Sequence record: SRR20825010_478
Reading direction: 5' to 3' (one strand)
Length of the DNA: 46,796 nucleotides
Shown: piece after piece, positions 11,071 through 46,397 of the stretch
Layout: every line of letters starts with the position of its first letter
Numbering within the stretch: position 1 is the stretch's first letter
Notes under the pieces: generated by a model
Database searches by the model: none
Told to the model about the DNA's origin: nothing
The model's input: only the letters and a program-made list of their open reading frames with translations
Position numbers and translations under genes: made by a program

Positions 11071-11982
11071 TCAACGTTTGAGCCAGTCGATTCCCGATAG
11101 GTTTGCTATAGCAAGTGCCAATGCGTGTGTTCCGTCACGGCCGTGACCCTGTGCCGCGACGGCTTGATAGAGCTGTTCTGCCAGAGCCAATCCCGGCATG
11201 GAAAGACTCATTGCTCGGCACTCGGCAAGTGCAATTCCCATGTCTTTGATGAAGTGTTCGACGTAGAAGCCGGGATCAAACTGATTGTCGATGATTCGCG
11301 GTCCCAAGTTGTTCAGCGACCAGCTTCCCGCTGCACCGGATCCGACCGATTGCAGAACCGTTGGCAAATCCAATCCGGCTTTGTGTCCGTAGACCAACGC
11401 CTCACAAACGCCGATCATGTTGGTTGCGATCAAGATTTGATTGACCATTTTTGTGTGCTGGCCCGCACCGGGACCGCCCTGATGGACGATGGTCTTGCCC
11501 ATCAAATCCAGGCAAGGCTGCACCTTTGTGAGTGCACGACCGCTACCACCGACCATGATGGACAGCGTTCCACCTTTTGCGCCCGTGTCACCGCCGGAAA
11601 CGGGAGCGTCGAGCGAGTCGACTTCTCGGCGAGCCGCTGCTTCGGCGATTTCAACGGCCAGCGACGGTTGGCTGGTCGTCATGTCGACAATCACATTGCC
11701 TGGTTTGCAGCCCGCCAGGACTCCGGTTTCTGGGTCCAAGATGACTTCACGAACGTCGTGTGGGTAACCAACGATCGTGAAGATTAGATCGCTACTTTCC
11801 GCCACCGCTCTAGGCGTCTTCACCCAAGTCGCGCCGCGAGTCAGTAGCAACTCAGCTTTCGCAAGTGTTCGAGTTGTCAGCGTGACTTCATAGCCGGCGT
11901 CAAGCAGATGGCCGCACATGCTGGCCCCCATCACTCCCGTCCCAACCCATCCGATTTTCGGGAGCGATTTGTCGTCGGCCAT
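11071..11982 (-). CDS. Beta-hydroxyacid dehydrogenase (3-hydroxyisobutyrate dehydrogenase / 2-hydroxy-3-oxopropionate reductase family)
   Basis: [34 protein letters not shown]. Confidence 0.92.
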
Positions 11983-14195: not shown

Positions 14196-15503
14196 TCAAA
14201 TGAGCAATGACCGAATTGGTTTTCCGTTGTCTGTGATTGGGATCGGACGGTCGCCGTCGTAGAGCAATTTTTGTGGGTCGATTCCGAGCGACGCGTGCAC
14301 GGTCGCAAATAGATCTGGAACGCTGACCGGCGATTCGACGATGTTTTGTGAAAGCTCGTCAGTCAGTCCATAGGCTCCGCTGTGGTTCAGTCCGCCGCCC
14401 GCCAGGACACAGGTGAACGCCTTGCCTTGGTGACCTCGTCCGCCGCCGGCGTCGAAGCCTGGTGGTCGTCCAAATTCAGACGACACCATGATCAACGTTT
14501 TGTCCAGCATTGAGTGCTTTTCCAAGTCATCGATCAACGTTGACATGGCTGTGTCCAAGTCTCGGATCAGTTCATGCTGTTTGTTGATGCCATCGTTGTG
14601 GACATCCCAACCCGTACCGTTGATGAAGTTCAGGTTATGGGAGACTTCCACAAACCGAACGCCTCGCTGGACCAAGCGTCGAGCCAGCAAACATCGTTGA
14701 CCGAATTCGCTGCCGTATTGATTGCGAAGTTGGCCGCTCTCGTTTTCCAGTTCGAAAACTTCTCCGAACTCCGGACCGGACAAACGCAGCGATTGTGCGA
14801 TGACCGAATCGTAATTCGCGACAGCTGAATCGTTGTCGAAGCGACGCCGAGCTGATGCTCTTGTTGCACTCAGCAGATGCTCGCGTCGTGATTGACGTTC
14901 CGCATCAATCCCGTGTGGTAGTGACAATCCGGACGGGCCTTTGCTGGTATCCGTCAGATACAGGTAACCACTTGATGCACCCAGGAATCCTGGACCGCGA
15001 GTCACGTTTGGATAGCCGATCAAGACGTAAGGCGGGACGCTGGAATCTGCTGCACCGAGTTCGTGAGCAACGACGCTGCCCAGCGACGGGTAAGTAACGG
15101 TTCCTGTCACGACACGACCGGTGTGCATTCGGTTTGTCGCCGCCGCGTGTTCATCAATCACGTCATGGTGAACCGTTCGAACAGCCGTGACACGATCCAT
15201 GCGTTCGGCGAGTCGCGGCAAGTGTTCACAAACGGAAACTCCAGCCACGGCCGTGTCGATCGATTTATATAGCGAACCCGGTTTTCGAGCCTTTTGGTCA
15301 CCCATTCGTTTGGGATCAAACGTGTCGATCTGCCCCATGCCGCCACCAAGCCAAATCGAGATGACGCGTTCGGCTTTCCCGAATGGCGTGGCGGCAATTG
15401 ATTCATTCGCTCGCAACAATCCACTCACGCCAGCGGATGACGCGGCAATGGCGGTGCTGCCTGCTGCAACGCTTTGCAGCCAACTTCGTCGAGATTGCAA
15501 CAT
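14196..15503 (-). CDS. DUF1501 family protein with a Tat signal
   Basis: ATG 15503 ([10 protein letters not shown], twin-Arg) overlaps the upstream stop (TGATG); [34 protein letters not shown]. Confidence 0.92.
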
Positions 15504-18500: not shown

Positions 18501-19291
18501 GAATGTTGACCTCCCATCGACGAGCCAATCCAAACCGGAGCGTCGTCGATGATTGGAGCCTGCTTTGTCGGTCCGCCCATGTCCCATTTTCCAGTAACCG
18601 GCTTTCCGTTTAACCAAGCGCGAACGCTTTTGGGTTCGCCAAAACGGTAAGTGACAGCGATGTGGTTCCAGGTCGCGGTTGATTCGATCCCTTCGCTCGA
18701 CGTCCATCGGTGCCAAGGTGTATTGCCGGAAACCTCCGGCGTTGCGAAAAGCAGACTGATGCGGCTACTGCCATTGAGTTGCCGCAAACGCAACGCCCAG
18801 TTTTGATTGTTGGATGCGTACTTTTTCTCGTGTGTGCGACCCTTGCCGATGACATAGACGTTTTGACCCTCGCCGATTTCGTCAATCTTGACGATGGCTT
18901 GGATCGAGAGCTCATCTCCATTGTCAAAATCCCACTGTGAATCGCTGCCCGGATCATCGATGACCAAGCGTTCGCCCTTGCCGTGAAATTGAGCTGACAG
19001 GTTGCCCGGTTTGGCTTCGGCGTATTCAGGCGGTACCGGTCCGGGGACATTCCATTTGACGGAACCATGAACGCGGATTTCCGATGGAGAGGTCGTGTTT
19101 GATTCCAACTTGGTGAAATCCAACGCTGTCACCACTTCGTTTTGGCTCGTCTGTTGAGCCAACGCTAAGGCGGAAAAGAGCGGTGCGGAGATCAGGGCAG
19201 CGAAACTGGCAACGTAGATACAGCACCGGTGCGAGTTTCTACACAGCCAAGCGTGATCACACGCTCTCGTTGTGATTCCAAACGAAAACAT
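15503..19291 (-). CDS. Planctomycete DUF1549/DUF1553 (PSD1/PSCyt) protein with an N-terminal LamG-like domain and cytochrome c motifs
   Basis: Signal peptide; WNHIAVTY...WIG...FRGWID LamG-like region; CFRCH (17477-17491), CARCH (16775-16789), [24 protein letters not shown]-terminal WSLLNSPEF. Confidence 0.92.
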
Positions 19292-30034: not shown

Positions 30035-30433
30035 GCAGGAAGCCGTCTGTTACCTGATACGTGAAGCGTATTGAGGTTGCAACAGTCCATGTGTACCCGC
30101 TTAGACGCTTGACGAAGCACATGGGGGCCACCAAACGTCTACCCAGCCAAACTGGCGAGCGGCCCCCTTGGGATTCACTTTCTCACGGTTGAAACGCCAG
30201 CACCATCGTGTGAATCGTGATGGCTTGGAGTGGTGGTGGACGCCCGTGCATTTGGCGTAGTCAAACGGATGAAACTCCGATTGTGACGATTGTTGCGTTT
30301 GCGTGAACCTGATGTGTGGACGGTCTTCGCATTGTCGCGGAAGTCTGCCGTGCGCGCACAAATGGAGGGCTAACTTTATAGTGCCCCGCTTTTCAAATTC
30401 TTCATGTTTCACACTAAGGTGGGGAGAATCCGT

Positions 30434-30859
30434 ATGAACAAAACTGAGCGTATTTTATTCGTGGATGATGACACCATCGTCCTTCGTGTGCTCAGACGCA
30501 GCATGGAAGAAGACTACGACGTTGAGACCGCCGATTCAGGGCTGAAGGCACTCGAAATTCTGCGAGGTACGTCGCCGATCAGCTGCGTGGTCAGTGACAT
30601 GAGAATGCCAATCATGGACGGCGTCGAATTGGTCCAGAAAATCTCGTTGGAATGGCCGGAGATTCCCTGCATCATCCTGACGGGCAACCAAGACGAAGAG
30701 AGCGAACGTCGCGCGATTGAAGAAGCAAACGTTTTTTGCTTGATGAACAAACCTTCGCCTCGTGGTGAAATCATCGAAGCGATCGAGGGTGCTCTGAAAT
30801 GTCGAAGTGAAAAGGAAGCTCCGGCGAAGTCGGATACTCATTTCACGATGAGTGCATGA
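30434..30859 (+). CDS. Single-domain response regulator receiver
   Basis: ILFVDDD, VVSDMRMP phospho-Asp, ILTG, NKP; GGGGAG RBS before ATG 30434. Confidence 0.92.
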   Translation: MNKTERILFVDDDTIVLRVLRRSMEEDYDVETADSGLKALEILRGTSPISCVVSDMRMPIMDGVELVQKISLEWPEIPCIILTGNQDEESERRAIEEANVFCLMNKPSPRGEIIEAIEGALKCRSEKEAPAKSDTHFTMSA

Positions 30860-30918
30860 TCGCCCGATCCTACGTGGCGACCAACCGGCGTCCGATCTTC
30901 CTACCCTAGGAAAGTATC

Positions 30919-33900
30919 ATGAAGCGTTCTCTCACCCTTGCACTATCAGTTGCTTGCGTCGGGATAGTGATGACGGCGGCGACAGTGAATGTCGTTCGTC
31001 GATCAACGATGCGGCACGACCAGGTCCGATTTGAGCATCTTGCAGATCGCTTGCACGGCGAGTTTCAACGTCGAATGCAGCAGAGTGAACTGGGATTGGT
31101 CGCGGTTCAGTGCCTCTTTTCGGCGAGTGAATCGGTTCGGTACGACGAATTCACCAACTTGCTTGCACAAATCAATTTCGAAGATGAATTCCTTGGCGCA
31201 GAAGCGTTTGGGTATCTGGAGATCGTGCCTGATACACCTGAGGCACTGGAATCACTTAGCGATGAACTGGTTGCCTCCGGTTTGCCTCCACTCCGTTTGT
31301 TGACTCCCAAAAGCGCTGGTATTCCCTACGATCAGGTTGGCGACGACCGTCTCATTCCCGCGAGATTCATTGTCAAATTTGTTCAGCCCGGAACACGCTT
31401 TTCGCAGGTGATCGGTTTGGACATGGGCGAAGATCTCTCTCGGCGAAAAACGGCCGAACTATCTGCGCGTACCGGACAGGCCTGTATCACCCCGCGACTG
31501 CAACTCGTCGGCGCGGATCCCAATGAGGTGAACTTCCTGTACATGGTTCCTCATTACCGAGGTCTTCCCACGACCGAGGCCGAGCGATTGGAATCAATCG
31601 TTGGTTGGGTTGGAATGGTCATCGACACGTCTGCTGTGTTTGAAGGGTTGGAAACCGCGACCGGGTCCGAACTCGGTTACCGTTTGTTCATTCAGGAAGG
31701 CGACAAAGGCAAATTTGAGGTTGCTTCCAGCGGTGAGTTGGGAGAGTCCTATGTGAACAGCTTCAAACACCATGCAGCGGAAAAAATTGCGGGGCAACGC
31801 TGGGATATCGAGATGTTCCCTACTCGAACTTTCGCGACCACCGCATCTTCATTGGTCTGGATGATCGGACTGGGTGGTGCCTGTTGCACGGCGTTGGTGT
31901 CCACACTGGTATTCCTTTTGAGCTCAAGCGCATACAGGGCCAATCGAGCCGCCGCGAAAATGACCGTGGATCTGCGTAAGTTGGCGATGGTCGCTCAGCG
32001 AACAACGAACTCCGTCATCATCACTGACGCGGAACGAAGAATTACGTGGGTCAACGAGGGATTCACACGAGTCAGCGGCTATGAACTTCACGAAGTGATC
32101 GGTAGGACACCCGGAAGTTTTTTGCAATGTGAAGAAACTGATCGTCGGACGATTGCAGAAATTCGAAAAGCACTCCGCAACAAAATTGGTTTCTATGGAG
32201 AGATGCTGAACCGTCGTAAGAGCGGAGAACACTACTGGGTGAACCTCGATATTCAGCCGCTTCACGATGTGGATGGTGAACACATTGGGTACTTGGCGAT
32301 CAAAAATGATGTCACCGAGGCTCATCAAGCTGCCGAAGAATTGAAGCAAGCCACTCAGCGAACAGAGTACGCACTGGACGGTGGCAGAATGTCGATCTGG
32401 GACTGGGACGTTCAGCAAGAACGAGTCTTCTACGACAGTCGCTGCTATTCAATTACAGGACATAGAACATCTAAGGATGGTGATCCGATCCAAGCTTGGT
32501 TCGATCGCATCCATGAAGACGATCTTGAGCACGTGGAAAGAGAGATCGGCCGCTGCGTTCAAGGTGAGACTGACGTTTTCCAAATTGAATGGCGATGCAG
32601 ACGTGCCGATGGCCAATTCAATTGGTTGTTTGCACGCGGTCAGGCGCTGCAGCGTGACAAGGACGGACGGGCAACGTTCCTTGCTGGAACGACGATGGAG
32701 ATCAACGAACGAAAGCGTGTGGAAGCGGCGCTCATTGAAAACACCAAGCGTTCGCAAGCGATGTTCAATTCGTCGCAAGACGCCATCTTGTTTCTGTCCG
32801 ACGGAGAACTACTGGATTGCAATCCAAGAGCGCTCGAGATGTTTGGATTCGACACCTTGGATGAAATGCGAAGTGTCAATGTGATTTCACTGTCACCAGA
32901 GTATCAGCCCGACGGGAAACGCTCTGACGTCGAGGGTGAGAAAATTATGGAGATGATTCGTCGGGATGGAAAGAAGCATTTCGAGTGGACTCACCAAACG
33001 AAGGACAAACAACCAATCGATTGCGACATTTCGGTTGTCTCATTCGAGTTGTCGGGACGCATCTACGAACAAGCGGTGATCCGTGACATTTCGAGCAAGA
33101 AGGAAATGCAGCGACAGTTGGCACAAACGCAAAAACTAGAAAGTATCGGTCAGCTTGCCGCGGGCGTCGCACACGAGATCAACACGCCGATGCAGTGCGT
33201 GTTTGGGAATGTGGAGTATCTCAACACGGCTTTTGACAAGGCATTCGACCTGATCAACTCCTACCGTGAACTACGCAACGATGAAAACCCAAGCGAGCTT
33301 GCGCAGGAAGTCGTGCCAAAGGCAGAAGCTTCTTGTCGATTTGATTCCTTGCAACGCAACATCACCGAGTCGATTCAGGAAGCTCACGACGCGTCGAATC
33401 GCGTGATTGATATCGTGCGAGCGATGAAGACAATGTCGCATCCCGGCACTTCAGACAAAAGCACAACGGATTTGAATCAACTGATTCGTGATGCAACCAC
33501 CGTGGCTCGCAATCATTGGAAATACGTTGCGAAGTTGGAGTTGGACTTGGATGAAACCGTCACGCCACTTCCTCTTTTTCCAGCTCAAATGAGTCAGGTG
33601 ATTCTGAACTTGGTGGTCAACTCCGCCGACGCGATCGAGGAACGAGTCGGCAACGACTCTCGCGAACTTGGGAACATTTCGGTTGCAACTCGTAACGCCG
33701 GAGATGACATACAAATCGTCGTGAGTGACACGGGCTCCGGTATGCCTGAAAGCGTCCAGTGCCGAGTCTTCGATCCGTTCTTTACGACGAAGGATGTTGG
33801 CAAGGGAACCGGGCAAGGACTGGCGATTGCGTATGACGTCGTGGTCAAGCAACACGGTGGAACGATCAAGGTAGATTCCACGCCTGGCGAAGGAACTCAG

Positions 33901-34011
33901 TTCACAATCACGCTTCCGACCAACGTCGATTCGGGAATCGGGCTGATTCTCGTAGAAAACGGAATCGGTTCTGGTGAAGCCGGGAATTTGATTGAAGCAA
34001 CCGTTGGATAG
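30919..34011 (+). CDS. CHASE / multi-PAS sensor histidine kinase
   Basis: TM - CHASE-like region (VIGLDM...R...AELSARTG) - TM - three PAS/PAC - QKLESIGQLAAGVAHEINTP - FDPFFTTKDVGKGTGQGL. Confidence 0.93.
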   Translation: MKRSLTLALSVACVGIVMTAATVNVVRRSTMRHDQVRFEHLADRLHGEFQRRMQQSELGLVAVQCLFSASESVRYDEFTNLLAQINFEDEFLGAEAFGYLEIVPDTPEALESLSDELVASGLPPLRLLTPKSAGIPYDQVGDDRLIPARFIVKFVQPGTRFSQVIGLDMGEDLSRRKTAELSARTGQACITPRLQLVGADPNEVNFLYMVPHYRGLPTTEAERLESIVGWVGMVIDTSAVFEGLETATGSELGYRLFIQEGDKGKFEVASSGELGESYVNSFKHHAAEKIAGQRWDIEMFPTRTFATTASSLVWMIGLGGACCTALVSTLVFLLSSSAYRANRAAAKMTVDLRKLAMVAQRTTNSVIITDAERRITWVNEGFTRVSGYELHEVIGRTPGSFLQCEETDRRTIAEIRKALRNKIGFYGEMLNRRKSGEHYWVNLDIQPLHDVDGEHIGYLAIKNDVTEAHQAAEELKQATQRTEYALDGGRMSIWDWDVQQERVFYDSRCYSITGHRTSKDGDPIQAWFDRIHEDDLEHVEREIGRCVQGETDVFQIEWRCRRADGQFNWLFARGQALQRDKDGRATFLAGTTMEINERKRVEAALIENTKRSQAMFNSSQDAILFLSDGELLDCNPRALEMFGFDTLDEMRSVNVISLSPEYQPDGKRSDVEGEKIMEMIRRDGKKHFEWTHQTKDKQPIDCDISVVSFELSGRIYEQAVIRDISSKKEMQRQLAQTQKLESIGQLAAGVAHEINTPMQCVFGNVEYLNTAFDKAFDLINSYRELRNDENPSELAQEVVPKAEASCRFDSLQRNITESIQEAHDASNRVIDIVRAMKTMSHPGTSDKSTTDLNQLIRDATTVARNHWKYVAKLELDLDETVTPLPLFPAQMSQVILNLVVNSADAIEERVGNDSRELGNISVATRNAGDDIQIVVSDTGSGMPESVQCRVFDPFFTTKDVGKGTGQGLAIAYDVVVKQHGGTIKVDSTPGEGTQFTITLPTNVDSGIGLILVENGIGSGEAGNLIEATVG

Positions 34012-35500: not shown

Positions 35501-35917
35501 CTACTGCGGCCCCGTCATTTCCCAAATCACGCCACGCGTTTTCGTGGGATCTATGAAGCCGGCCTTCTTGCCGAGCACACCATCGTGAGGCGTCTCGTTC
35601 TTAGGCGACATGCCACGATCTGGTAGCTCGGCAAAGGTTGCTCGAACGTCTCTGGTCTCGAAACACAGATGGTGAAGTCCTTCACCGTTTTGATTCAGAT
35701 GGTCCATCAGCGGATGATCATCGGTCAATGGCTGAACCAATTGCAGATGCAGATTGCCCATGTCCAAATGTGTTAGCCGAACGTTTCCTGATTCGATCTT
35801 TTCGTCGATCACGACCGGAAGTCCCAGCTGATCGCGGTAGAACGAGAGGGCTTCATCAGTGTTGCGTACCACAATCGCGATGTGATCGAGTTTTTTAAAC
35901 AGTGGTGGCTGAGACAC
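35501..35917 (-). CDS. VOC family protein (methylmalonyl-CoA epimerase-like)
   Basis: LDHIAIVV, LQLVQP, GEGLHHLCF, GVIWE giving a His/Gln/His/Glu metal-ligand set. Confidence 0.88.
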   Translation of the reverse strand: MSQPPLFKKLDHIAIVVRNTDEALSFYRDQLGLPVVIDEKIESGNVRLTHLDMGNLHLQLVQPLTDDHPLMDHLNQNGEGLHHLCFETRDVRATFAELPDRGMSPKNETPHDGVLGKKAGFIDPTKTRGVIWEMTGPQ

Positions 35918-35940
35918 GGGAACCTCGGTGAAGAAAAGTA

Positions 35941-37341
35941 TTAAGCTTTGAGTTTTTGAAATGCTTCGAGCAACGCGTTTGTGCCACCAACGTTTCCGGG
36001 AAAAACGACGTACGCAATTCCCGGGAAATGACTATCAGCCGGCATCTTCCAGACCGGAACACCTGGAAGGATTTGACCGAGCACCATTGCGTGTTTGGCC
36101 TGCAAACCCTTGGTTGCAACGTCGCTTGAGGTGATACCACCCTTGGCGATCAAGAACCGCGGACGCTTGGTGAGCCTTCTGACCACTGAAACCAATGCGT
36201 CCGAAACGCGATTGCCGATCGACAAACTGGACGCAGCATCGGTGCCGGTCACCAATTTACGTGAGGATGATAAGACGACGTTGGCTGATTGAAGCGATTC
36301 ATTCACCAACTGGGTCACTTCCAACAGATACGACTCGCTGTCATCGGCAAGTAGCTTGTCCACGTCCAATACAACCGACTTCAAGGTGGGTTCACTTTCG
36401 AGCAGCGACGCGAGTTGCTGTGTTGTTTTGGGAACGTAGGATCCAACGACAACCAGACCGGTCTTCGTGTTGCCATCGACCATTTCATCCGGCGTCAGCA
36501 ATTCGCGTGGTTCCAACCCCGCAAAGGCCTGTACGAAACTTGCCGCCGTACGATAGACAAACGTCTGTCCCTTTTGTTCAGCATTCTGAGCGGCTAGCAC
36601 AAAGGCTTCCATGTCTCGCATGCACGCCGCATTGACAATGCAGACGGAACCCGGCGATAGATTGGCTAACCGATCAGTCAGTGACGACAGATCGGACGAG
36701 CGAAGTTCATTCAAACTAACCGAAGCGATTTGGTCGGCATCGATGTTGCCGTTGTGCTTTTCAATCACCCATTGTTTCAGATCGCTATTCTGGAAGCCGA
36801 ACGCGGCGTCCTGAGCAAACGGGGTTTCCGCAGCGGGGACCAATTGCTCATCCTCGGCGACGTAGTGAACGTCACCGATCGTGTAGCGACCTCCCTGTAA
36901 GAAGAAGGGGGCAATCACATGAACTGCGTCGGAAGTGCCGACCGCGGCCGCAATCGCGTCCACTTCGGCCGGGTAATGACCACGAAGGGTCGAGTCGCTG
37001 CGGCTAACAACCACGAACTTTTGCTTGGTCCGCTGAGCGGCCTCGTTCAGGTTGGCTCCGATTTCGTTTGCCAACTTGATCGCATCAGGCTCGGTCAATG
37101 AACGAGAATTGGTGAGGATGTAAAACAAGGTCCCGGGTGAGGTGAATGCCGCGGCTAGTTCGTCCACACCCCACGTGGTCAAAACCGGCGTGTCGTAGAC
37201 CGTCTGCGTTCCTGTTGGATCATCGTCCAATACGACGATCTTGCGATTCGATTTGTCATTGTTGTCACGGATCTGCGCAATCAATGATTCCGAGCGTTCT
37301 TCCGCGATGCCTTCGAGGGCTTCCGAGAGGGTTTGTGTCAT
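35941..37341 (-). CDS. Four-carbon acid-sugar kinase family protein (DUF1537/YgbK)
   Basis: VVLDDDPTG, TNSRSL, SRSDSTLRGH, VVGSY, AKGGITSSD, VFPGNVG; ATG 37341 preferred. Confidence 0.92.
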   Translation of the reverse strand: MTQTLSEALEGIAEERSESLIAQIRDNNDKSNRKIVVLDDDPTGTQTVYDTPVLTTWGVDELAAAFTSPGTLFYILTNSRSLTEPDAIKLANEIGANLNEAAQRTKQKFVVVSRSDSTLRGHYPAEVDAIAAAVGTSDAVHVIAPFFLQGGRYTIGDVHYVAEDEQLVPAAETPFAQDAAFGFQNSDLKQWVIEKHNGNIDADQIASVSLNELRSSDLSSLTDRLANLSPGSVCIVNAACMRDMEAFVLAAQNAEQKGQTFVYRTAASFVQAFAGLEPRELLTPDEMVDGNTKTGLVVVGSYVPKTTQQLASLLESEPTLKSVVLDVDKLLADDSESYLLEVTQLVNESLQSANVVLSSSRKLVTGTDAASSLSIGNRVSDALVSVVRRLTKRPRFLIAKGGITSSDVATKGLQAKHAMVLGQILPGVPVWKMPADSHFPGIAYVVFPGNVGGTNALLEAFQKLKA

Positions 37342-37400
37342 GGCAAAAAGGTTGAAAAAGAACGTGGATGAACGGCTGAATGCGACGGTTGTATTAGCTA

Positions 37401-37427
37401 CCAAGCACGTCGGCAGGAATGATCGGG
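37401..37427 (+). repeat. Copy 2 of the 27-bp intergenic repeat (CCAAGCACGTCGGCAGGAATGATCGGG), between the cyclase and kinase genes
   Basis: 25/27 identity to the reverse complement of 3-29. Confidence 0.85.
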
Positions 37428-37542
37428 AAAAGCCATGTGAGCCATTTGGGCGTTAGCCCCGGTTGTACGTGGGAACAGTGGCGTCTGTCATAACAGTTCA
37501 AATGCCGAAACACTTCTGACGACATTCTTAATCGCGGCGGAC

Positions 37543-38190
37543 TCAGGATTCGATCGGACAATCCAACAGAGCAAACGCGCGACAAGGCGCGCCGTCGCCA
37601 CCGGCAACCTTGAGCGGAGTGGCACCAAACAAACACTTTGGCTCTGTAAGCGATTCCAAATTTGTCAGCCCTTCAACGATGATCACGTTGCCTCCGAGCA
37701 GAATCTGGTGGATCTCGGTGACGGCGGGCAAATTGTTGACATCTGCGACCGATGGTGGTTCCACACCAATCAACCGAACCTTTCGCTCAACCATCCAGCG
37801 TGCAAGCTCGGGACTGATCGGCTGAAAGTTGTCTCGATAGTAGGCTGGATCCCCAACGTGCTGGCTCCACATTGTCCGGAACAAGAGTGCATCGCCGGGT
37901 GGAAAGGTTTCCGCTAGATCGCCGAGGTGGGCGATCTCGATCGGTGTCTTCGGCGGCAAATGGGCTAGATCGACAATCCACGCTATTCCGAAACAATCTT
38001 GCAGAGGAATCTGGTCGATTGTTTGTTCGCTCGCTTCGAAATGCAGCGGGGCGTCCATGTGCGTGCCGCAATGCGAATAGAGGTGCAGCGTGCTTGCGTT
38101 CCAACCATCCTTGGCCTTGGTGAACTTGCTCTCCCATTCGAAGCCTCGCATGCCTGGTTCGATACGAAGCGTTAAATCAATCACTTTCAT
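37543..38190 (-). CDS. Cyclase family metal-dependent hydrolase (kynurenine formamidase-like)
   Basis: HCGTHMDAPLHF (HxGTHxDxPxH), IHQILL, IVEGLTNL, GGDGAPCRA; ATGA overlap with the upstream stop. Confidence 0.92.
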   Translation of the reverse strand: MKVIDLTLRIEPGMRGFEWESKFTKAKDGWNASTLHLYSHCGTHMDAPLHFEASEQTIDQIPLQDCFGIAWIVDLAHLPPKTPIEIAHLGDLAETFPPGDALLFRTMWSQHVGDPAYYRDNFQPISPELARWMVERKVRLIGVEPPSVADVNNLPAVTEIHQILLGGNVIIVEGLTNLESLTEPKCLFGATPLKVAGGDGAPCRAFALLDCPIES

Positions 38191-39236
38191 ACCCGCGGTG
38201 ACTCCCAGCATCCGGACTCGGAGGACGCATACATGGCTTCCTGCACCGCCAAACTTTTCAAATAGTTCGGGCCATCTGTTTCGAATGCTTCGCCGGTCGA
38301 AAGGTTGTCAATGAAGTTTCGCTGCGTCGCGAAAACACAGTCTCCGGCAAAACCATGTTGGCTGGGTGAATAGACATGTTCGCGTTCGGATTCCCCCAAA
38401 CCCTGAATCGTCAGGCGTCCATCGTCGTACAATCGAATGCTACCGCCGTCACCTTCCAGCAGAACTTCGCCAAATGTATAGCGAGGATTCTTCGAGGTGG
38501 ATTCATTGAAGCGGTTCGCGTCGTAAAGCCCCATCGCTCCGCCCTCAAAACGAAACACTCCAACGGCGGTGTCTTCGCCCGCGATGACTGGATTGAGTTT
38601 GCGATGCCAGCACCAGGTTTGTTCGATTTCGCCGCCGAGATACCGGAAGGTATCGATCGTGTGAATGCCAGCTTCGAAAATCAGGAACTTTTCCATCGTC
38701 TGAAAGTATGGCTGGCGAGCAAGATACGCCTCGGGGCCGTGCCCGTCGCCCGCACGGTTACGGAATGATAGCGAATGCAAACGATTGCCAATCACGCCAT
38801 CTTCCATCAACCGTTTCATTTCGCGATACCAAGGTTGAAAGCGAAAGTTTTCGTGCACCATAAAGCGGATACCGCGTTCCTCCACCAACGACACCATTTC
38901 GCGAGCTTCCTGCACCGTGGGGGCCAACGGCTTTTGGCAGATGATTGCGATTCCGCGTTGCGAGATTTCGTCGACTAATTCCAGATGCGTATCTGGACGC
39001 GTGATGATGTCTACGAAGTCGACTTGATGTTGGTCGAGCATCTGTCGGTAGTCCGAATAGACGGACTTCACACCGTGTGTTTGAGCCACATCGTTCGCTT
39101 TTTCCATGTCGACGTCGCAACAAGAAACGATCTCAACATCCGGCATTCTTTTCCAGGCGTCATAGTGAAACTGGCTGAAGTAGCCGGCTCCAATCACGGC
39201 GCCTCGGTAGGTTCGTCCATCGGGTTGTGAACTCAT
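38187..39236 (-). CDS. Gfo/Idh/MocA NAD(P)-dependent sugar dehydrogenase (ApsD-like subfamily)
   Basis: AVIGAGYF, DFVDIIT, ICQKP, MVHENFRFQ, GIHTID, NPVIAGED. Confidence 0.9.
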   Translation of the reverse strand: MSSQPDGRTYRGAVIGAGYFSQFHYDAWKRMPDVEIVSCCDVDMEKANDVAQTHGVKSVYSDYRQMLDQHQVDFVDIITRPDTHLELVDEISQRGIAIICQKPLAPTVQEAREMVSLVEERGIRFMVHENFRFQPWYREMKRLMEDGVIGNRLHSLSFRNRAGDGHGPEAYLARQPYFQTMEKFLIFEAGIHTIDTFRYLGGEIEQTWCWHRKLNPVIAGEDTAVGVFRFEGGAMGLYDANRFNESTSKNPRYTFGEVLLEGDGGSIRLYDDGRLTIQGLGESEREHVYSPSQHGFAGDCVFATQRNFIDNLSTGEAFETDGPNYLKSLAVQEAMYASSESGCWESPRV

Positions 39237-40546
39237 GCCGTCGCTCCCGTGGCTGGGGAAGCCGCATTAAGTTCCTCCGCGATGGAGCGGTCCGGCGAGA
39301 TCCGAAACCACATGAAGATTGCCACAATGTTCAATGCAGCCGCCGAATAAAAGAACGGTTCGTGTGCATCGAAGTAGGCCACCAAGTATGGGAACGATAG
39401 AGATGTCGCGAAGGCACCCAGGTTGCCCACCATGTTCATCGCACCGCTGACCGCACCGGCACTCTTTCCACCGATGTCCATGCAAGTCGACCAGGACGGA
39501 CTGAGGATCATGTCACTTCCAAAGATTGCGATGCACATGCAGATGACCGCTGATGTGGGAGTTGTCATGTTGACGCACAAACTCATTCCAATCGCCCCGA
39601 GTGCAAATCCAATTGCGGCTGGCAGACGCCGGGAGAGCTTCCAATGTCCTTTGCTGTAGAGCCGATCCACCGTGAATCCGGCCAGCCAGTTTCCCACGAC
39701 GCCAAACAGCAATGGGGCCGCGGCATAGAGACCGGTTTGTTGGCTGGTCAACGAATACTGTTCCTTCAGGTACGGAAAAAACCAACTGACGGTGAAGAAA
39801 AAGGTGAAGTTGTGTGCCACGTACTGAACCATCAGCATCAACATGTTCGTTGACTGCAGCATCTGCACAAACTTGATGGGTGCTTCTGCGACGTCACTGG
39901 TTGTTCCAGCTCGCTTTGGCGATCGCGATTGGATAATGTGCGCAGCTTCGGCTTCGGAAACGGCAAAGTGATCTTCGGGCAGATCACGAAATAGCAGGAA
40001 CCAAACCACCGCGAAAAGGATTCCCATCGCACCGAAGAACCAAAACGTTTGTTGCCATCCACCCAAAGCACCAATCAACCAAACCACGCCGGGCATGGCG
40101 AGTGCAGCACCCAATCGCCCACCGGAGAAGCTGATCGAGTTGGTGATTCCACGTTCATTCATTGGCAACCATGACGTGAATGCACGTGCGAGTGTCGGAT
40201 AACCACCCGCTTCGCCCATTCCAAACAAAAATCGCAAACCGATCATGGCGGACAATCCTCGGACGACTCCGGTCAGGACGGTGAAGGCGGACCAAATCAA
40301 ACACACCACCGCCATCACGCGCCTCGGTCCAAATCGATCAGCCAGCTTCCCACTGGGCACCTGGAAAAGGGCGTAGCCAAGGGCGAAGGAGGACATGACC
40401 CAGCCCATTTGCTGGTCGGAAAACCCAAGGTCGGTCGCCATGTCTTCTTTGGCAGCCGAAATACAAGCTCGATCCACCCACATCAGCACGGACAGCAAGA
40501 ACGCGCCGAGTATTAGGAAGAAGCGTGTGGGCATCGGAGTGTCCAT
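39233..40546 (-). CDS. MFS transporter, anion:cation symporter (glucarate/galactonate-like)
   Basis: WVDRACIS, QVPSGKLADRFGPRR, RFLFGMGEA, W.P..ERG, SGAMNMVGNLG; about 12 TM. Confidence 0.92.
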   Translation of the reverse strand: MDTPMPTRFFLILGAFLLSVLMWVDRACISAAKEDMATDLGFSDQQMGWVMSSFALGYALFQVPSGKLADRFGPRRVMAVVCLIWSAFTVLTGVVRGLSAMIGLRFLFGMGEAGGYPTLARAFTSWLPMNERGITNSISFSGGRLGAALAMPGVVWLIGALGGWQQTFWFFGAMGILFAVVWFLLFRDLPEDHFAVSEAEAAHIIQSRSPKRAGTTSDVAEAPIKFVQMLQSTNMLMLMVQYVAHNFTFFFTVSWFFPYLKEQYSLTSQQTGLYAAAPLLFGVVGNWLAGFTVDRLYSKGHWKLSRRLPAAIGFALGAIGMSLCVNMTTPTSAVICMCIAIFGSDMILSPSWSTCMDIGGKSAGAVSGAMNMVGNLGAFATSLSFPYLVAYFDAHEPFFYSAAALNIVAIFMWFRISPDRSIAEELNAASPATGATA

Positions 40547-40595
40547 TCATTGGAGTGTGGAAACGTTCGCGAGCGAATCTGTTCGACGCGAAAAC

Positions 40596-41690
40596 TCAAA
40601 CAGCAGTGGTTTCACCTTGCAGTCGTTTGCTCAACCGTTCTGCGATCTTGTCTGTGATCTCAACGGTCGAGAGATTGCCGCCCATGTCAGCGGTACGCTG
40701 TGTTGGATCCGACAACACGTCAGCTATCGCGGCGTTGAGTGCATCGGCGGCACGTCGTGTTTCGGGATGGTCCAACCATTCCAGCATCATTGCGGTTGAA
40801 AGGTGCATCGCGATTGGATTGGCGATGGATTGACCGGCGATATCAGGCGCTGATCCATGTGAAGGTTGAAACACCGCTGCGTCGTCACCGATATCGCCAG
40901 ATGGTGCCATCCCCATCCCGCCAACCAACCCGGCTGCCAGGTCAGACAGGATGTCGCCGAACATGTTCTCCGTAACCATCACATCAAAGTCTTCCGGACG
41001 GCGGACCAAGAACAACGCTGCGGCATCGACATAGACGTGTTCGGCTTTGATGTCGGGGAACTCTTTGGCGACTTCATCGAACACATGCCGAAAATAAACC
41101 ATCGACGAAAGCACGTTGGCTTTGTCGATCAATGTGACGGTCTTCTTTCCATCTCGGCGACGTGCGGTCTCGAACGCCAATCGGCAGACTCGCTCGGATG
41201 CCGAACGAGTGATCCGCAACAAGTTGGTCGCTTCATCGGCTTCCAAATCGGCAATCGCATCGCGACCGTAGAACAGCCCTTCGGTGCTTTCGCGAACGAG
41301 CACGAAGTCGATGTCGCCAGGGCCGTGGCCCTTTAGTGGCGTGTCCGCTTCGTGATACAGACGGATCGGGCGAACTCCCCCGTACAACTGCAGTCTTTCA
41401 CGAAGGTCGAGTTGCGGTGCAATCTCTTTGCCGTTGGGATAACGAACGTTTGGCAGCCCCATCGCACCCAGCAGAACCGCGTCGGAGGCCAAGCAAGCAT
41501 CGTAAGCGGACTGCGGCAACGCTTCGCCGGACCGTTGATACTCACCAACACCGACGCTGTGACGATCAAGCTGGAACTCGACACCATCCAAGTGCGGCTG
41601 CATGATCTCCAGCAGACGAACCGATTGGTCACAAACTTCGGGGCCGATACCATCGCCACCTAAGATGACGAGATGAAAGGATTGGGGCAT
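40596..41690 (-). CDS. Isocitrate/isopropylmalate/tartrate dehydrogenase family protein (atypical active site)
   Basis: [39 protein letters not shown]. Confidence 0.92.
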
Positions 41691-41943
41691 GGGTGATGGT
41701 GCGAGAAAGAATGGGCGACTGGAAAATCACAACGCACGGTGAGTCGAACACGTCGCTCACCTGCGATCGAATCGCAGAGCGACACGGAACGGTCGAGAAC
41801 GACTGGATGCACTCCTTCGCGTGTCCTCAACGGCGCACATTACACCACAACAGAAACGAATTCGACAGAGGACAGCCAACATTCTTGCGCCTCGCTCTAT
41901 ACACTCACTGGTTGTGGAAGCCAGAAACGCGATTGCAAAAGGA

Positions 41944-42996
41944 ATGGATGTGTCGACTCGAATCAAACTTCTCGCGAGCTGTGTGACATTTGCATGTTGC
42001 ATCGTCGCTATCGTCCCAAATGTTTTCGCTCAGCGACCTCGTTTGGCCGTGCTGACAGATATCGGAGGCGACCCGGACGATCAGCAATCGATGATCCGTT
42101 TGCTGGTCTATTCCAACGAGTTCGAAATCGAGGCACTGATTGCAAGCGCATCAGGAACACGCGGTGAGTTGAAAGAGTCCGTGACTCGGCCCGATCTGAT
42201 TCACGAACTCATCGACGCTTACGAAACCGTTCTTCCAAATCTGAAACAGCACGCCGAAGCGTGGCCACAACCGGAAGCACTTCGCAGCGTCGTTGTGTCA
42301 GGCAATCCGCATCGCGAACGGCCACATATAGGTCAGGGACATGACACGGACGGATCGCGATTGTTGGTTCAACGCATCGACGCTGGTACCCCAAAGTCTC
42401 CGCTTTGCATCACAGTGTGGGGTGGGCAAACGGACTTGGCTCAAGCCCTGTATAGCGTGAAATCAGAACGTGACGCGGAGGGCTTTGCCGAATTCTTGAG
42501 CAAGTTTCGTGTCTATGACATTGCTGACCAAGACGGAATCGCAGACTGGATGGGTCAGGAGTTTCCTGGGATGAACTACGTTCTGTCCGCCGCCAGGCCA
42601 AAGAGCGATAAACGCATCGCGAATTTTCGCGGTATGTATTTGACAGGGGACGTCAGTACGACCAGTCGCGAATGGATCGATTCCAACGTTCGGCAGATGG
42701 GGCCACTGGGATCGCTTTATCCCATGAAGACATGGACAGCGCCCAATCCTCATGGATGTTTGAAGGAAGGCGACACGCCCTCGTGGTTCTTCTTCCTGCC
42801 GCACGGAGGCAACGATCCAAACGATCCAACTCAACCAGGTTGGGGCGGCGTGTTCGAAAAACTAGCCAACGGTTGGTATCGCGACCGCGCTGCTTCGTCG
42901 TCTTACGATCCGCGAACGTCCGTCAGTCGTTGGCGACCTGAGTTCCAAGCGGACTTTGCCAAACGAATGCGTTGGTGTCTACCAGCAGACGAGTGA
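41944..42996 (+). CDS. Secreted DUF1593 (nucleoside hydrolase-like) protein
   Basis: Signal peptide; LTDIGGDPDDQQSMIRLLVYSNEF, VWGG, EGDTPS, PGWGG, DFAKRM.W; ATG 41944 preferred. Confidence 0.88.
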   Translation: MDVSTRIKLLASCVTFACCIVAIVPNVFAQRPRLAVLTDIGGDPDDQQSMIRLLVYSNEFEIEALIASASGTRGELKESVTRPDLIHELIDAYETVLPNLKQHAEAWPQPEALRSVVVSGNPHRERPHIGQGHDTDGSRLLVQRIDAGTPKSPLCITVWGGQTDLAQALYSVKSERDAEGFAEFLSKFRVYDIADQDGIADWMGQEFPGMNYVLSAARPKSDKRIANFRGMYLTGDVSTTSREWIDSNVRQMGPLGSLYPMKTWTAPNPHGCLKEGDTPSWFFFLPHGGNDPNDPTQPGWGGVFEKLANGWYRDRAASSSYDPRTSVSRWRPEFQADFAKRMRWCLPADE

Positions 42997-43069
42997 GGCA
43001 GCAAAGGCTTCGCACGTCGTTTCAGCTCAAAGACTTAGACGCGATGGTTTGGCCGAATTGAGAATGATA

Positions 43070-44662
43070 TCACCCGATTCGGTACGCTTCGGAAAGTTTC
43101 GCGAAGGATGCAACTTGGGATTTGATCCAAGCTTCGTCGCGATCCAATTCGGATGCCATCAGCCTTGCCACGGTCTCGGAGATTGCGATTGCAGCAGCCG
43201 AATTCAGAAACAGGCAACGAGTTCGCCTCGCTAGCACATCTTCGACGGTCCTTGCCATTTCATAGCGGGTCGCCCAGATCACTTCGGCACCGGTGATTGA
43301 AAGCTCAGGATGCAAAGGTGATGCCCACTCCGCGTGTTCACGTTCGAGACTTTCGATCTCGGGCAAATCCGATCCATAGTGCCCTCGTCCCGATCCTGCG
43401 ACGGTGTTGGTGGAACCGGAATTTGGATCGTAGCCGTGCAGATGCAGTGTCTCCGTTCGGCAGGCGTTGGCCTTCAATGGATTTGCGGAATTCTTGGTCG
43501 AAGCGAGCGTGCGATCCACGCAATCCTCCGCCATTTTGCGAACCGTCGTCCACTTGCCTCCGGTAATCGTGATCAATCCAGAATCAGATAGACGAATTGT
43601 ATGGTCACGTGAAAGCGAAGCCGTCCGAGACGATTTATCTCCTTTGACGAGAGGTCGAATCCCCGTGAAAACGCTGAGAACGTCCGACCGGGTTGGAGCC
43701 TCCACCAAGTACTCCTTTGCCGTTTCGAGTAGAAACTCAATTTCACCGGCTTGCGGTTTTGGTTCTAAAGAAACGGTCTCGATGGCGGTGTCGGTCGTTC
43801 CAACGACAGCGTGGTTGTGCCACGGAATGATGAACAAGACACGTCCATCGGATGTTTTAGGAACGATCATCGCAATGTCGCCGGGAAAGAATCGCCTTGG
43901 CAAGACAATGTGCACGCCTTGGCTGGCCGCCAGCATTTTCTCAGCAGCGGGTTCATCCATCATACGGACCGCATCGCAGAATGGACCGGCGGCATTAATG
44001 ACTCGCCGAGCCATGATGCAATGCGTTTCACCCGTCTCACGGTCTTCCGCCACGACGCCATCGATATTACCGCGGGCATCCTTCGACAAATCGGTGACGG
44101 CGAAGTAGTTCAGCAAGCAAGCCCCCTGCTCATTTGCGGTTCTTGCCATACTGATCAACAACCGTGTGTCATCGAATTGCCCATCGTGATAAACGACTCC
44201 GCCGTTGGCCTTTTCGGTTTTGATCGTAGGGACTCTCTCGAGCGACTCCTTCTGATTGATTGCGTGAGATCGTCCGAATCGATTTCCGGTCGCCAAAAAG
44301 TCGTAAACCTTCAAACCAATCGCGTAGTACATCCGTTCCCATCGAGATTGACAGGGAATCAGGAACGGCATGTCGTGAACCAAGTGCGGCGCGTTATTGC
44401 GAAGCAACGTGCGTTCCTTCAATGCATCTCGCACCAAGGTGATGTTGCCTTGCTGAAGATACCGAACACCACCGTGAACCAGCTTGGTGCTACGACTGGA
44501 CGTTCCCTTTCCAAAGTCAGCTTGTTCGAGCAACAAGCAGTCCAGTCCGCGACTGGCGGCATCCATCGCGATTCCGACGCCGGTCGCACCGCCACCAATG
44601 ATGACGATGTCCCAAGGTTCGGAACGTTCTTTGAGTTTCGTCAGGGATTGTTGACGTTGCAT
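43070..44662 (-). CDS. glpD: FAD-dependent glycerol-3-phosphate dehydrogenase
   Basis: GGGATG, GTSSRSTKLVHGGVRYL, DGQFDD, GTTD, GGKWTT, DVLARRTR; adjacent to glpK. Confidence 0.95.
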   Translation of the reverse strand: MQRQQSLTKLKERSEPWDIVIIGGGATGVGIAMDAASRGLDCLLLEQADFGKGTSSRSTKLVHGGVRYLQQGNITLVRDALKERTLLRNNAPHLVHDMPFLIPCQSRWERMYYAIGLKVYDFLATGNRFGRSHAINQKESLERVPTIKTEKANGGVVYHDGQFDDTRLLISMARTANEQGACLLNYFAVTDLSKDARGNIDGVVAEDRETGETHCIMARRVINAAGPFCDAVRMMDEPAAEKMLAASQGVHIVLPRRFFPGDIAMIVPKTSDGRVLFIIPWHNHAVVGTTDTAIETVSLEPKPQAGEIEFLLETAKEYLVEAPTRSDVLSVFTGIRPLVKGDKSSRTASLSRDHTIRLSDSGLITITGGKWTTVRKMAEDCVDRTLASTKNSANPLKANACRTETLHLHGYDPNSGSTNTVAGSGRGHYGSDLPEIESLEREHAEWASPLHPELSITGAEVIWATRYEMARTVEDVLARRTRCLFLNSAAAIAISETVARLMASELDRDEAWIKSQVASFAKLSEAYRIG

Positions 44663-44727
44663 GGTCAGATACGGTGAAAAGTAGACTAAGGGGAAAAGGG
44701 GGAAGCGTTCAGACGAAGCTCGTCAGG

Positions 44728-46233
44728 TCAATCAGCGGAAGCTTCCTGTTCCACCCATTGCTTGGATCGTTCCAACGCCGCCGCCCAGCGTCGCCGTCGT
44801 CGAGCAACTTCCTCGGCGGGCATTTGAGGTTCGAAGACGCGGTCGGTTTCCCAAATTCGTTCGATGTCCGCGCTGTCTTTCCAAAATCCCGTTGCCAGCC
44901 CAGCGACGTAAGCCGCACCCGCCGCGGTCGTCTCGATGACTTTTGGCCGGACGACGCGAGCGCCGATGATGTCGGCTTGGAACTGCATCAGCAAATCGTT
45001 GGCGGCCGCTCCGCCATCGACGCGTAGTTCTTCAATCGCCACACCAGAATCTTTTCGCATCGCATCCAACACATCCGCCACTTGGAATGCGATGCCTTCT
45101 AAAGCAGCCCGTGCGATGTGGGCTTTCGTCGTACCGCGAGTCAGCCCCACGAGTATCCCGCGAGCGTACGCGTCCCAGTGCGGTGCACCCAACCCCGCGA
45201 ACGCCGGGACGAGGTAAACGCCATCGGTGTCATCGACGCTGGCGGCGAGCGATTCGACTTCCGAAGACGATTGGATGATCCCCAAACCGTCTCGCAACCA
45301 CTGCACAATCGCTCCGGCAATGAAGATGCTGCCTTCATACGCGTATTCGCGTTTGCCGCCGTCCCAACACGCGACCGTGGTCAGCAACCGCGAAGGCGAC
45401 GCGGCGGCTTCTTCGCCGATGTTCATCAGCATGAAGCAACCGGTTCCGTAAGTGTTCTTGGCCATACCAGGCTGCGTGCAATTTTGGCCGAACAAAGCCG
45501 ATTGTTGGTCGCCAGCGGCTCCGCCCAACGGAATTGATTTTCCGAACAAGCTGGATTCGGTCTCGCCGTAGATGTGACTGGATGGATGAACCGACGGAAG
45601 AACTTCTTTTGGAACCTTGAAAAGTTCCAGCAATTCGTCGTCCCACTGCCCGGTATGAATGTTCCACAGCATCGTGCGAGACGCATTGGTCACATCGGTC
45701 GCATGAAGTTTGCCGTCGGTTAGATTCCAGAACAGCCAACTGTCGATTGTCCCAAATGCCAACTCGCCATTTTCCGCTCGCTCTCTAGCTCCTGCAACAT
45801 TGTCCAGAATCCATCGCAGCTTCGTCGCACAAAAATAGGCGTCGATGATCAGTCCGGTCTTCTTTTGCACGCGATCAGAATGGCCGGCTTCCCGAAGAGC
45901 ATCGCAATCCGACGCCGTCCGGCGGTCTTGCCAGACGATTGCGTTGTGAATCGGCTCACCAGTCGCTCGATCCCAGACCAAAGTGGTCTCACGTTGATTG
46001 GTGATGCCGATGGCTTCAATGTCCGACACGTCCATGTCGTGCTGCTTCAAAACATCGCGGGCGACCGCCAACTGAGTCGTCCAAATTTCGGTCGCGTCGT
46101 GTTCCACCCAACCTGGTTTTGGATAGTGTTGTGTGAATTCCTTTTGAGACACGCCGATGATTGACCCATCGTGTGCGAAAAGGATTGCGCGAGAACTCGT
46201 TGTTCCTTGATCAAGTGCCAAAATTGCCTTCAC
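44728..46233 (-). CDS. glpK: Glycerol kinase
   Basis: GTG 46233 after [48 protein letters not shown]. Confidence 0.95.
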
Positions 46234-46397
46234 CGAAAGTCTCCGCCTGGGTGTTCGTTTGTGATCAATGCTGAAGTGGTCCCTCATTCTATCAGTGCGG
46301 TTGATAGCAGGTTCTCGAAAAGGTCGCCGAAACCGCCACGTACGCAAATGAACTTTGGATCAGATCGCCCGCAATCGACCGTGGAAGCTTGCGGTCG

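Follow-up and report, generated by a model that had tools for sequence, protein, structure and literature searches.

Which pathway do six co-oriented genes on the minus strand of SRR20825010_478 serve, and do the neighbouring glycerol genes glpK and glpD belong to it? This stretch of DNA, 46,796 nucleotides long and hereafter called the window, carries side by side the genes for a dehydrogenase of the isocitrate/isopropylmalate type (Iso_dh), an MFS transporter, a Gfo/Idh/MocA oxidoreductase (Gfo), a cyclase-family hydrolase, a DUF1537 kinase and a VOC protein (Table 1). An earlier note on the sequence had listed six co-oriented genes of these families, all of which our domain searches found on that strand, and had proposed that they yield a three-carbon product for GlpK and GlpD. 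Comparison with other genomes leads us to a different reading, namely that the six genes most likely work on their own, as a catabolic cassette whose substrate is an acidic apiose-like sugar or a closely related acid.

The gene set recurs across phyla

We scanned one genome per species using an alignment of kinase homologues as the anchor, and compared the proteins of the window by tblastn (at least half of the query covered, E ≤ 1e-10) with the best 80 of 596 confirmed loci. Gfo had a match in 23 of these 80 loci, the MFS transporter and the cyclase in 21 each, Iso_dh in 19 and the VOC protein in 10; some of the Gfo, MFS and cyclase matches are just 24-32% identical and probably represent paralogues. 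The kinase has Iso_dh, cyclase, MFS and Gfo genes all as neighbours in 16 of the 80 loci (11 Bacteroidota, 3 Verrucomicrobiota, 2 Planctomycetota), and additional loci hold partial sets on short contigs. All six genes are found in identical order in three other Pirellulaceae genomes (L087, L089 and L090), and a fourth locus, L088, has a cassette complete except for the Iso_dh gene.

The kinase is rare in the lineage of the window (2 of 151 sampled genomes of the order, 11 of 201 of the family and 1 of 3 of the genus), and its closest named homologues come from Rhodopirellula species. Because of this rarity, the same order in other genomes and flanks that differ in each genome compared, the cassette looks like a mobile accessory unit, horizontally transferable by appearance.

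As an independent anchor we used an alignment of type A Iso_dh (see below) to scan metagenome contigs, keeping 80 loci, of which 20 are well flanked, with 4 kb or more on either side. Since the phenylalanine motif described below was part of one of the two search patterns, neighbours were counted but the motif itself was not. Among the 20 well-flanked loci, Gfo is present in 14, MFS in eight, and the cyclase, the VOC protein and a DUF5060-type protein in six each. A kinase of the window type accompanies Iso_dh in five and an OtnK-type kinase in four, which gives a DUF1537 kinase of either type in nine, and an OtnC-type protein is found in the same four loci as the OtnK-type kinase. Conserved co-occurrence of the gene set, which the earlier note had named as a check, was borne out across phyla with both anchors.

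Frequent neighbours of the cassette are sulfatases, LacI/GntR regulators and other glycan-degrading genes. In L087 (8895-9836), and likewise in L089, a gene of the 3-hydroxyacyl-CoA-dehydrogenase family is inserted between the Iso_dh and MFS genes; L-gulonate 3-dehydrogenase belongs to this family. Kelch-repeat genes of NanM-like (sialate mutarotase-like) type follow or flank the cassette in Bacteroidota (L059 9740-10810, L040 10965-12017, L099 1029-2375).

Transporter, hydrolase and tail are exchanged around a constant pair

A protein search of plasmids with Gfo uncovered variants of the cassette, three loci being informative, including the metagenome locus L171. On a Sulfitobacter mediterraneus plasmid, an operon of three TRAP genes, an ABM-type protein, an AHL-lactonase-family hydrolase, otnK and an aldolase is divergent from the genes for Iso_dh, Gfo and a GntR regulator. 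This Iso_dh is 48.6% identical to that of the window and keeps the Phe discussed below, the Gfo is 41.6% identical, and the kinase and aldolase reach the NCBIfam equivalog cut-offs for OtnK (498 against 350) and OtnC (299.7 against 250), the kinase not reaching that for OiaK (97 against 700). A Marinovum plasmid has TctCBA and a Zn hydrolase beside Iso_dh, Gfo and a regulator; the 19-kb region shown lists no kinase. The gene row of L171 reads Iso_dh, Amidohydro_2, MFS, Gfo, DUF1537 kinase, Aldolase_II and AP_endonuc_2.

What stays constant across these versions is the pair of Gfo and Iso_dh. The transporter slot is filled by anion:cation symporter (ACS) MFS, TTT or TRAP proteins, all of which are anion importers; the hydrolase slot by the cyclase family, a metallo-beta-lactamase (MBL) type protein (AHL-lactonase or Zn hydrolase) or Amidohydro_2; and the tail by OtnK and OtnC, with or without an OtnI-type protein, or by the window-type kinase and VOC. 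From these swapped parts we infer an acidic substrate, a cyclase that acts as lactonase and an oxo-tetronate-type intermediate ending as dihydroxyacetone phosphate (DHAP). The comparison thus points to a route from acid sugar to lactone, (di)acid, oxo-tetronate-type acid and DHAP. The three-carbon end product of the earlier note survives in the form of DHAP, which fits the variants with equivalog-level OtnK and OtnC. Its assignment of Gfo as a sugar 1-oxidase and of the cyclase as a lactonase likewise agrees with the comparative data, in which unrelated lactonase families occupy the same slot.

The window's own transporter has its best NCBIfam match in the D-galactonate transporter subfamily (246 bits, below the cut-off of 395), and its orthologues in cassette loci are 42-52% identical. 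Its cyclase carries the metal motif HCGTHMDAPLH, the motif of the kynurenine formamidase/cyclase family being HxGTHxDxPxH; it does not reach the arylformamidase equivalog (75.1 against 223), and its best PDB match is 1r61.

Loss of a catalytic tyrosine in two Iso_dh lineages

In enzymes of the isopropylmalate dehydrogenase (IPMDH) type, a catalytic Tyr in an (L/E)Y motif protonates C3 after decarboxylation; this residue is present in 3u1h, 1v5b and 3flk. F140 of the window's Iso_dh aligns with the Tyr of the LYFG motif in IPMDH structures, and Phe occupies this position in 18 of 18 cassette homologues and in five of five further ones. Of the 150 best representatives at 50% identity in the whole library, Phe stands at this position in 24 and Tyr in 113; of the 33 ranked highest, 18 have Phe.

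Two lineages with a mutual identity of just 33-38% fill the Iso_dh slot. Type A (the window, Verrucomicrobiota, Thermogutta, one Desulfobacteraceae genome and Roseobacter plasmids) stays below every equivalog cut-off; for the window's protein the best score is 323 against 540, with 288 against 353 for LeuB and 251 against 470 for TTC. A PdxA identity finds no support, since this protein matches PF00180 only, and not PF04166. Type B (Bacteroidota and Sedimentisphaerales) has its best structure in 3flk and, at 466-469, stops just short of the tartrate dehydrogenase cut-off of 470.4. Both types retain three Arg, the catalytic Lys, the three Asp that serve as metal ligands and the NAD loop. Loss of the Tyr in two lineages suggests altered chemistry: either the enediol formed from a 3-hydroxy-3-carboxy acid is handled differently, or no decarboxylation takes place.

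The earlier note had cast this tartrate dehydrogenase-like enzyme in the part of PdxA2, decarboxylating the phosphorylated acid at the end of the route, a role that the comparison does not support. OtnC or OtnI supply the tail in the variants, and Iso_dh would therefore act before the kinase and not as a substitute for PdxA2.

Gfo relatives and DUF5060 neighbours hint at an apiose-like start

The best solved relative of the window's Gfo is 5uhw (E 7.4e-44; next best 2.1e-21), which a model of the protein (predicted local distance difference test, pLDDT, 89.9) matches with a Z of 42.9 at 31% identity. 5uhw is probably the D-apiose dehydrogenase ApsD. A Rhizobium leguminosarum plasmid encodes its orthologue (648 bits), within a cluster that also comprises oiaX and the genes for a DUF1537 kinase, a sugar ABC system, a DUF5060 protein and a 6PGDH-C-domain protein. 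The Gfo of this oiaX cluster is 34% identical to the window's Gfo, so that the match to 5uhw and its orthologue, though clearly the best, is distant. Large DUF5060...Collagen_bind_2 proteins, often with a GH115_C-like domain, are found in eight cassette loci and in none of the non-cassette loci. Together, the relatives of Gfo and the DUF5060 neighbours hint at an apiose-like furanose released from glycans.

We do not class the DUF5060 proteins as GH140 apiosidases, their catalytic part reaching the Apiosidase model in just 2 of 10 at about 27 bits and a PDB search with the L025 protein giving no sequence match. In several Bacteroidota cassettes, a stand-alone protein of about 230-370 amino acids with a GH115_C-like domain is encoded just upstream of the Iso_dh gene (for instance L060 7538-8266, L066 7158-8270 and L099 3734-4429), and in other phyla this domain is fused to DUF5060 proteins.

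The kinase subfamily, the VOC protein and the missing tail

Compared with the NCBIfam equivalogs for OtnK, DtnK and OiaK, the window's kinase matches the D-threonate kinase model alone, at 77.8 against 450. It has no BLAST match at E 1e-3 to the Sulfitobacter OtnK or the R. leguminosarum kinase, and only a marginal one in the PDB. We scored 7999 homologues, the top matches being 51-98% identical and spread over several phyla. Relatives within the subfamily (36-56% identical) have a class II fructose-bisphosphate (FBP) aldolase-type gene adjoining in 8 of the 80 kinase-anchored loci and a HIBADH-type gene beside them in five; the window has neither at the cassette. The sections of PMC12540250 on these enzymes give 2-OtnC of the three-step tetronate route an F_bP_aldolase domain and LtnD NAD_binding_2/11 domains. 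Because the neighbours resemble these domains, the subfamily plausibly includes 2-oxo-tetronate kinases. A split transketolase, with N and pyrimidine/C halves, lies beside kinase relatives in 9-11 of the 80 loci, e.g. the non-cassette loci L069, L082 and L067, a pairing that suggests yet another route.

The VOC protein accompanies the kinase mainly in the Planctomycetota-Verrucomicrobiota group. It adjoins the kinase in 9 of the 80 loci, including loci without the remaining cassette genes, and does not reach the epimerase equivalog (97.4 against 114.95); the epimerase or isomerase role that the earlier note gave it is a candidate one.

As the earlier note had stated, there is no PdxA, class II aldolase or RuBisCO-like protein among the window's open reading frames (ORFs) scanned. 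We used the nearest genome, G001, as a stand-in for that of the window (62% of sampled words in common; proteins of the region 95-100% identical), and no obvious canonical partner that would complete a known pathway was found in it. G001 has one DUF1537 gene and a single PdxA, next to mutL, which passes the housekeeping pdxA model (357 against 290) and fails that for D-threonate-4-phosphate dehydrogenase (239 against 583), and RuBisCO_large has 0 matches in this genome, which is 99% complete.

A proposed route and the evidence for and against it

In the route that we propose, the anion-type MFS would import the acid, and Gfo would oxidise its anomeric carbon to give a lactone, which the cyclase-family metallohydrolase would open. 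The Tyr-to-Phe Iso_dh would then oxidise the 2-hydroxyl and most likely also remove the C3 carboxylate, giving a 2-oxo- or 3-oxo-tetronate-type acid. The DUF1537 kinase would phosphorylate the terminal hydroxyl of this acid, and the VOC protein or a housekeeping enzyme would complete isomerisation and decarboxylation to DHAP. We regard the overall skeleton (oxidase, lactonase, Iso_dh and kinase, ending in DHAP) as probable. Its narrower version, in which Iso_dh decarboxylates a dicarboxylate, is offered tentatively and falls slightly short of an even chance. A tartrate-like substrate of Iso_dh is suggested because type B nearly reaches the tartrate dehydrogenase cut-off.

A more daring form of the route seems to us unlikely. 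Here the cassette would degrade a 3-C-carboxy branched-chain furanose, aceric-acid-like or an 'oxidised apiose', which the DUF5060 enzymes would release from glycans of pectic or algal origin; the Tyr-less Iso_dh would take the branch carboxylate off a 3-substituted tartrate to leave an oxo-tetronate, the cyclase family would be a new class of sugar lactonase, and VOC would replace OtnI/OtnC. Among other pathways considered, hexuronate-to-aldarate routes and those of Kdo/Dha were dropped on chemistry alone, and a glycerate kinase role for the kinase, with tartrate as the substrate, was set aside on chemical grounds as a poor fit with the OtnK/OtnC variants.

Several observations weigh against the proposed route. 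The window contains no recognised decarboxylase for the phosphorylated acid, and VOC is absent from the Bacteroidota versions of the cassette. G001, on which the genome-wide searches rest, is a close relative and a different assembly; it has class II aldolase-family proteins far from the cassette, with OtnC scores of 135 and 173 against 250, as well as a single class II FBP aldolase of housekeeping-like type, which shares 36% identity with a 2-OtnC-like neighbour. The scores of one LtnD-like protein encoded beside a related kinase are those of a tartronate semialdehyde reductase (359.9 against 340.75) and not of an L-threonate dehydrogenase (201 against 350), so the 2-oxo-tetronate kinase label for the subfamily is unproven. 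A quick tree of the kinases is poorly resolved, the cassette kinases being clustered but not one clade, and 4 of the 20 well-flanked Iso_dh loci are without any partner. To our knowledge there is no natural 3-C-carboxy-tetrose. Finally, loss of the Tyr fits a non-decarboxylating dehydrogenase at least as well.

This last point leads to an alternative that keeps the skeleton and that we judge rather doubtful. Iso_dh would be a metal-dependent 2-hydroxy-acid dehydrogenase or an oxidoisomerase that replaces LtnD/DenD or ApnO without decarboxylation; its substrate would be a mono-acid (D-apionate, D-erythronate or L-threonate), made by Gfo and the lactonase from apiose or a tetrose, or imported, and the kinase and tail would work as in the known tetronate and apionate routes. 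Such an enzyme would have no need to explain away the Phe that both lineages carry at the Tyr of the post-decarboxylation step. It would, however, leave the retention in both of the three substrate-binding Arg of a di-acid-binding family, and a type B score that is almost that of a tartrate dehydrogenase, to be accounted for. The relationship of Gfo to the oxidoreductase of the oiaX/apionate cluster, the DUF5060 proteins near both kinds of cluster and an anion transporter compatible with aldonate import suit an apionate-like substrate, and ApnO also converts D-erythronate, bypassing the dehydrogenase and OtnI steps, according to the portion of PMC13753588 on this enzyme. C3 of apionate is quaternary, though, which makes an OtnI-type isomerisation impossible, and the OtnK of the Sulfitobacter variant passes the OtnK model while failing that for OiaK.

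glpK and glpD are chance neighbours

The earlier note had placed glpK and glpD upstream of the six genes on the same strand and had linked them functionally. Position and strand are right; the functional link finds no support. The note had overlooked a gene of the opposite strand, encoding an Sde182-like protein, which separates the Iso_dh gene from glpD and is transcribed away from the cassette and towards glpD. Given this intervening gene, glpKD and the six genes cannot be one transcript.

Adjacency of glpKD to the cassette is confined to G001. Among the 80 kinase-anchored loci GlpD has no match and GlpK a single one, in L039, at 27% identity and to another FGGY kinase; glpK/glpD lie beside the cassette in none of nine other Pirellulales loci and in none of the 20 well-flanked Iso_dh loci. 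The Sde182-like protein has a homologue near the cassette in one of the 80 loci (L028, 65%) and in G001, and in none of the 20. Since the adjacency is limited to this near-identical genome, the link is coincidental, and glpK and glpD are ordinary glycerol genes and chance neighbours of the cassette. Nor is a three-carbon product handled by GlpK/GlpD called for, as DHAP requires neither enzyme.

The pathway of the earlier note, with the kinase acting first and Iso_dh replacing PdxA2 in the oxidative decarboxylation of the phosphorylated acid, so that a C3 product (dihydroxyacetone or glycerol) passes to GlpK/GlpD, is accordingly very improbable. It draws on the position of glpK/glpD, 1.4 kb upstream on the same strand, on the lack of PdxA2, OtnC or a RuBisCO-like protein in the window and of any clear one in G001, and on the common fold and chemistry of PdxA and Iso_dh enzymes. 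Besides the intervening gene and the near-complete absence of glpK/glpD from the comparison loci, it must contend with variants in which OtnC (and OtnI) coexist with Iso_dh, which is thus not the terminal decarboxylase there, and with the Marinovum plasmid, on which Iso_dh and Gfo occur with no kinase listed. Most improbable of all is the idea that unrelated enzymes were pieced together in particular lineages and serve no common pathway: the gap within the window's cassette, the differing flanks and the occurrence of kinase and VOC without the other genes would suit it, but at least three phyla share the set, translational coupling is seen, the independent Iso_dh anchor recovers the same partners, and the same slots are filled by functionally equivalent, unrelated proteins.

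Gene arrangement in the window

The features of the region are collected in Table 1. Both ATGA overlaps of the earlier note were found, that of the MFS stop with the Gfo start at 39236-39233 and that of the Gfo stop with the cyclase start at 38190-38187, the latter when the cyclase uses its second ATG; from the first ATG, at 38211, the cyclase gene would instead overlap that of Gfo by 25 nt. A spacer of 138-201 nt (37342-37542) separates cyclase and kinase genes, which almost abut in the related Pirellulaceae loci.

Immediately downstream of the VOC gene are two ORFs of 291 and 186 amino acids, whose homologues adjoin the cassette in G001 only; the shorter one overlaps the VOC stop by 25 nt and its product appears membrane-bound. 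A two-component pair lies just downstream of the cassette region, and further away is a gene pair typical of planctomycetes. A HIBADH-family gene 24 kb from the cassette was rejected as LtnD (168.7 against 350). Scans of the window for promoters (3 against 3.6±1.9 in shuffles) and terminators (13 against 9.8±3.2) gave no excess.

Table 1. Features of the cassette region and other genes of the window
Feature	Position	Strand	Match
VOC/glyoxalase-fold protein, methylmalonyl-CoA-epimerase-like	35501..35917	-	Glyoxalase_4 9.5e-19
DUF1537 four-carbon acid-sugar kinase, deep subfamily, ~466 aa	35941..37341, ORF continuing to TTG at 37404	-	SBD_N 4.3e-52 + NBD_C 1.3e-39
Cyclase-family metal-dependent hydrolase, proposed lactonase	37543..38190, alternative start 38211	-	PF04199 2.1e-28
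Gfo/Idh/MocA oxidoreductase, probable sugar 1-dehydrogenase	38187..39236	-	Pfam
MFS transporter, ACS type	39233..40546	-	MFS_1 1.6e-54
Iso_dh-family NAD-dependent dehydrogenase, type A, IPMDH/homoisocitrate dehydrogenase-like	40596..41690	-	PF00180 2e-96
Sde182 nucleoside-hydrolase-like protein, outside the conserved set	41821..42996	+	PF07632 2e-81
glpD	43070..44662	-	best matches are glycerol-3-phosphate dehydrogenase models
glpK	44728..46347	-	GlpK equivalog passed, 736 against cut-off 590
ORF, 186 aa	34965-35525	-	no Pfam or NCBIfam match
ORF, 291 aa	34022-34897	-	no Pfam or NCBIfam match
CHASE-PAS histidine kinase and response regulator	30404-34011		
DUF1501 / PSCyt-PSD1 gene pair	14196-19291		DUF1549/DUF1553
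HIBADH / tartronate-semialdehyde-reductase-family gene	11071-11982	-	under every equivalog cut-off

Significance and relation to known systems

The cassette appears to be a widely shared variant of an acid-sugar pathway with unusual enzymology, and a literature search, supplements not covered, found no publication describing it, nor did a search for the PDB codes bring up anything of relevance. It ranges over Planctomycetota, Verrucomicrobiota and Bacteroidota, with variants on plasmids of Pseudomonadota and a partial version in Thermodesulfobacteriota. Among its cultured carriers are a Rhodopirellula strain, Zobellia uliginosa, Ulvibacterium marinum, Chondrinema litorale and, for the plasmid variant, Sulfitobacter mediterraneus M342. 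If the proposed route is true, it would add a widespread member to the few acid-sugar pathways known for DUF1537 kinases and would give the cyclase family its first role as a sugar lactonase. It would also define a subfamily of isocitrate/isopropylmalate-type dehydrogenases in which the catalytic tyrosine was lost in two separate lineages, a handle for enzymology. In polysaccharide degraders of sea and soil the cassette lies beside sulfatases and secreted enzymes that cut glycans, and its substrate could reveal how a rare plant or algal sugar is recycled.

Zhang et al. in 2016 reportedly described a four-step tetronate route and Guo et al. in 2024 a three-step one, and Carter et al. in 2018 are said to have described oxidative routes for D-apiose and D-apionate. 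The four-step route is laid out in passages of PMC12540250 and PMC13753588 as LtnD/DenD, OtnI, OtnK and OtnC, and the three-step route in passages of PMC12540250 and PMC12994016 as LtnD, 2-OtnK and 2-OtnC. The cassette would share with both a DUF1537 kinase whose substrate is an oxidised four-carbon acid sugar, and DHAP as the final product; its variants carry equivalog-level OtnK and OtnC, L171 has an OtnI-type AP_endonuc_2 gene, and the kinase subfamily of the window is found elsewhere beside F_bP_aldolase-type genes. Unlike the tetronate pathways, it has no LtnD, the dehydrogenase slot being held by a Tyr-less Iso_dh preceded by a Gfo oxidase and a lactonase, and in the window a VOC protein alone stands in place of OtnI, OtnC or 2-OtnC.

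For the oxidative D-apiose and D-apionate routes, the relevant part of PMC13753588 names ApsD, ApnL, ApnO, OiaK and the RuBisCO-like OiaX/OiaT. The order of chemistry would be the same: a sugar 1-dehydrogenase, a lactonase, NAD- and metal-dependent oxidation of the aldonate, a DUF1537 kinase and a decarboxylation. The Gfo proteins are related, as described above, and DUF5060 proteins lie near both. The lactonase, the aldonate-oxidising enzyme and the kinase subfamily are different, however, G001 has no RuBisCO-like protein, and the transporters of the cassette are anion importers, unlike the sugar ABC system of the oiaX locus.

With tartrate dehydrogenase/decarboxylase, IPMDH and homoisocitrate dehydrogenase, the cassette enzyme shares a full-length Iso_dh domain, the Arg triad, the Lys, the three Asp and the NAD loop, type B coming within 5 bits of the tartrate dehydrogenase cut-off. 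It differs from them by the Phe in every cassette member examined and, for the window's protein, by scores below the cut-offs; unlike IPMDH and homoisocitrate dehydrogenase, it stands in a context of sugar catabolism and not of amino-acid synthesis. A further parallel is the L-ascorbate pathway of Cupriavidus necator, in which, reportedly (Stack et al. in 2020), a lactonase opens the lactone of a carboxy-branched sugar acid and an enzyme of the PdxA/Iso_dh fold removes the extra carboxylate, with no kinase taking part. The proposed cassette route would resemble it in pairing a lactonase with a member of this fold group that removes a carboxylate, and would differ from it in enzyme families, in substrate and in the use of a kinase.

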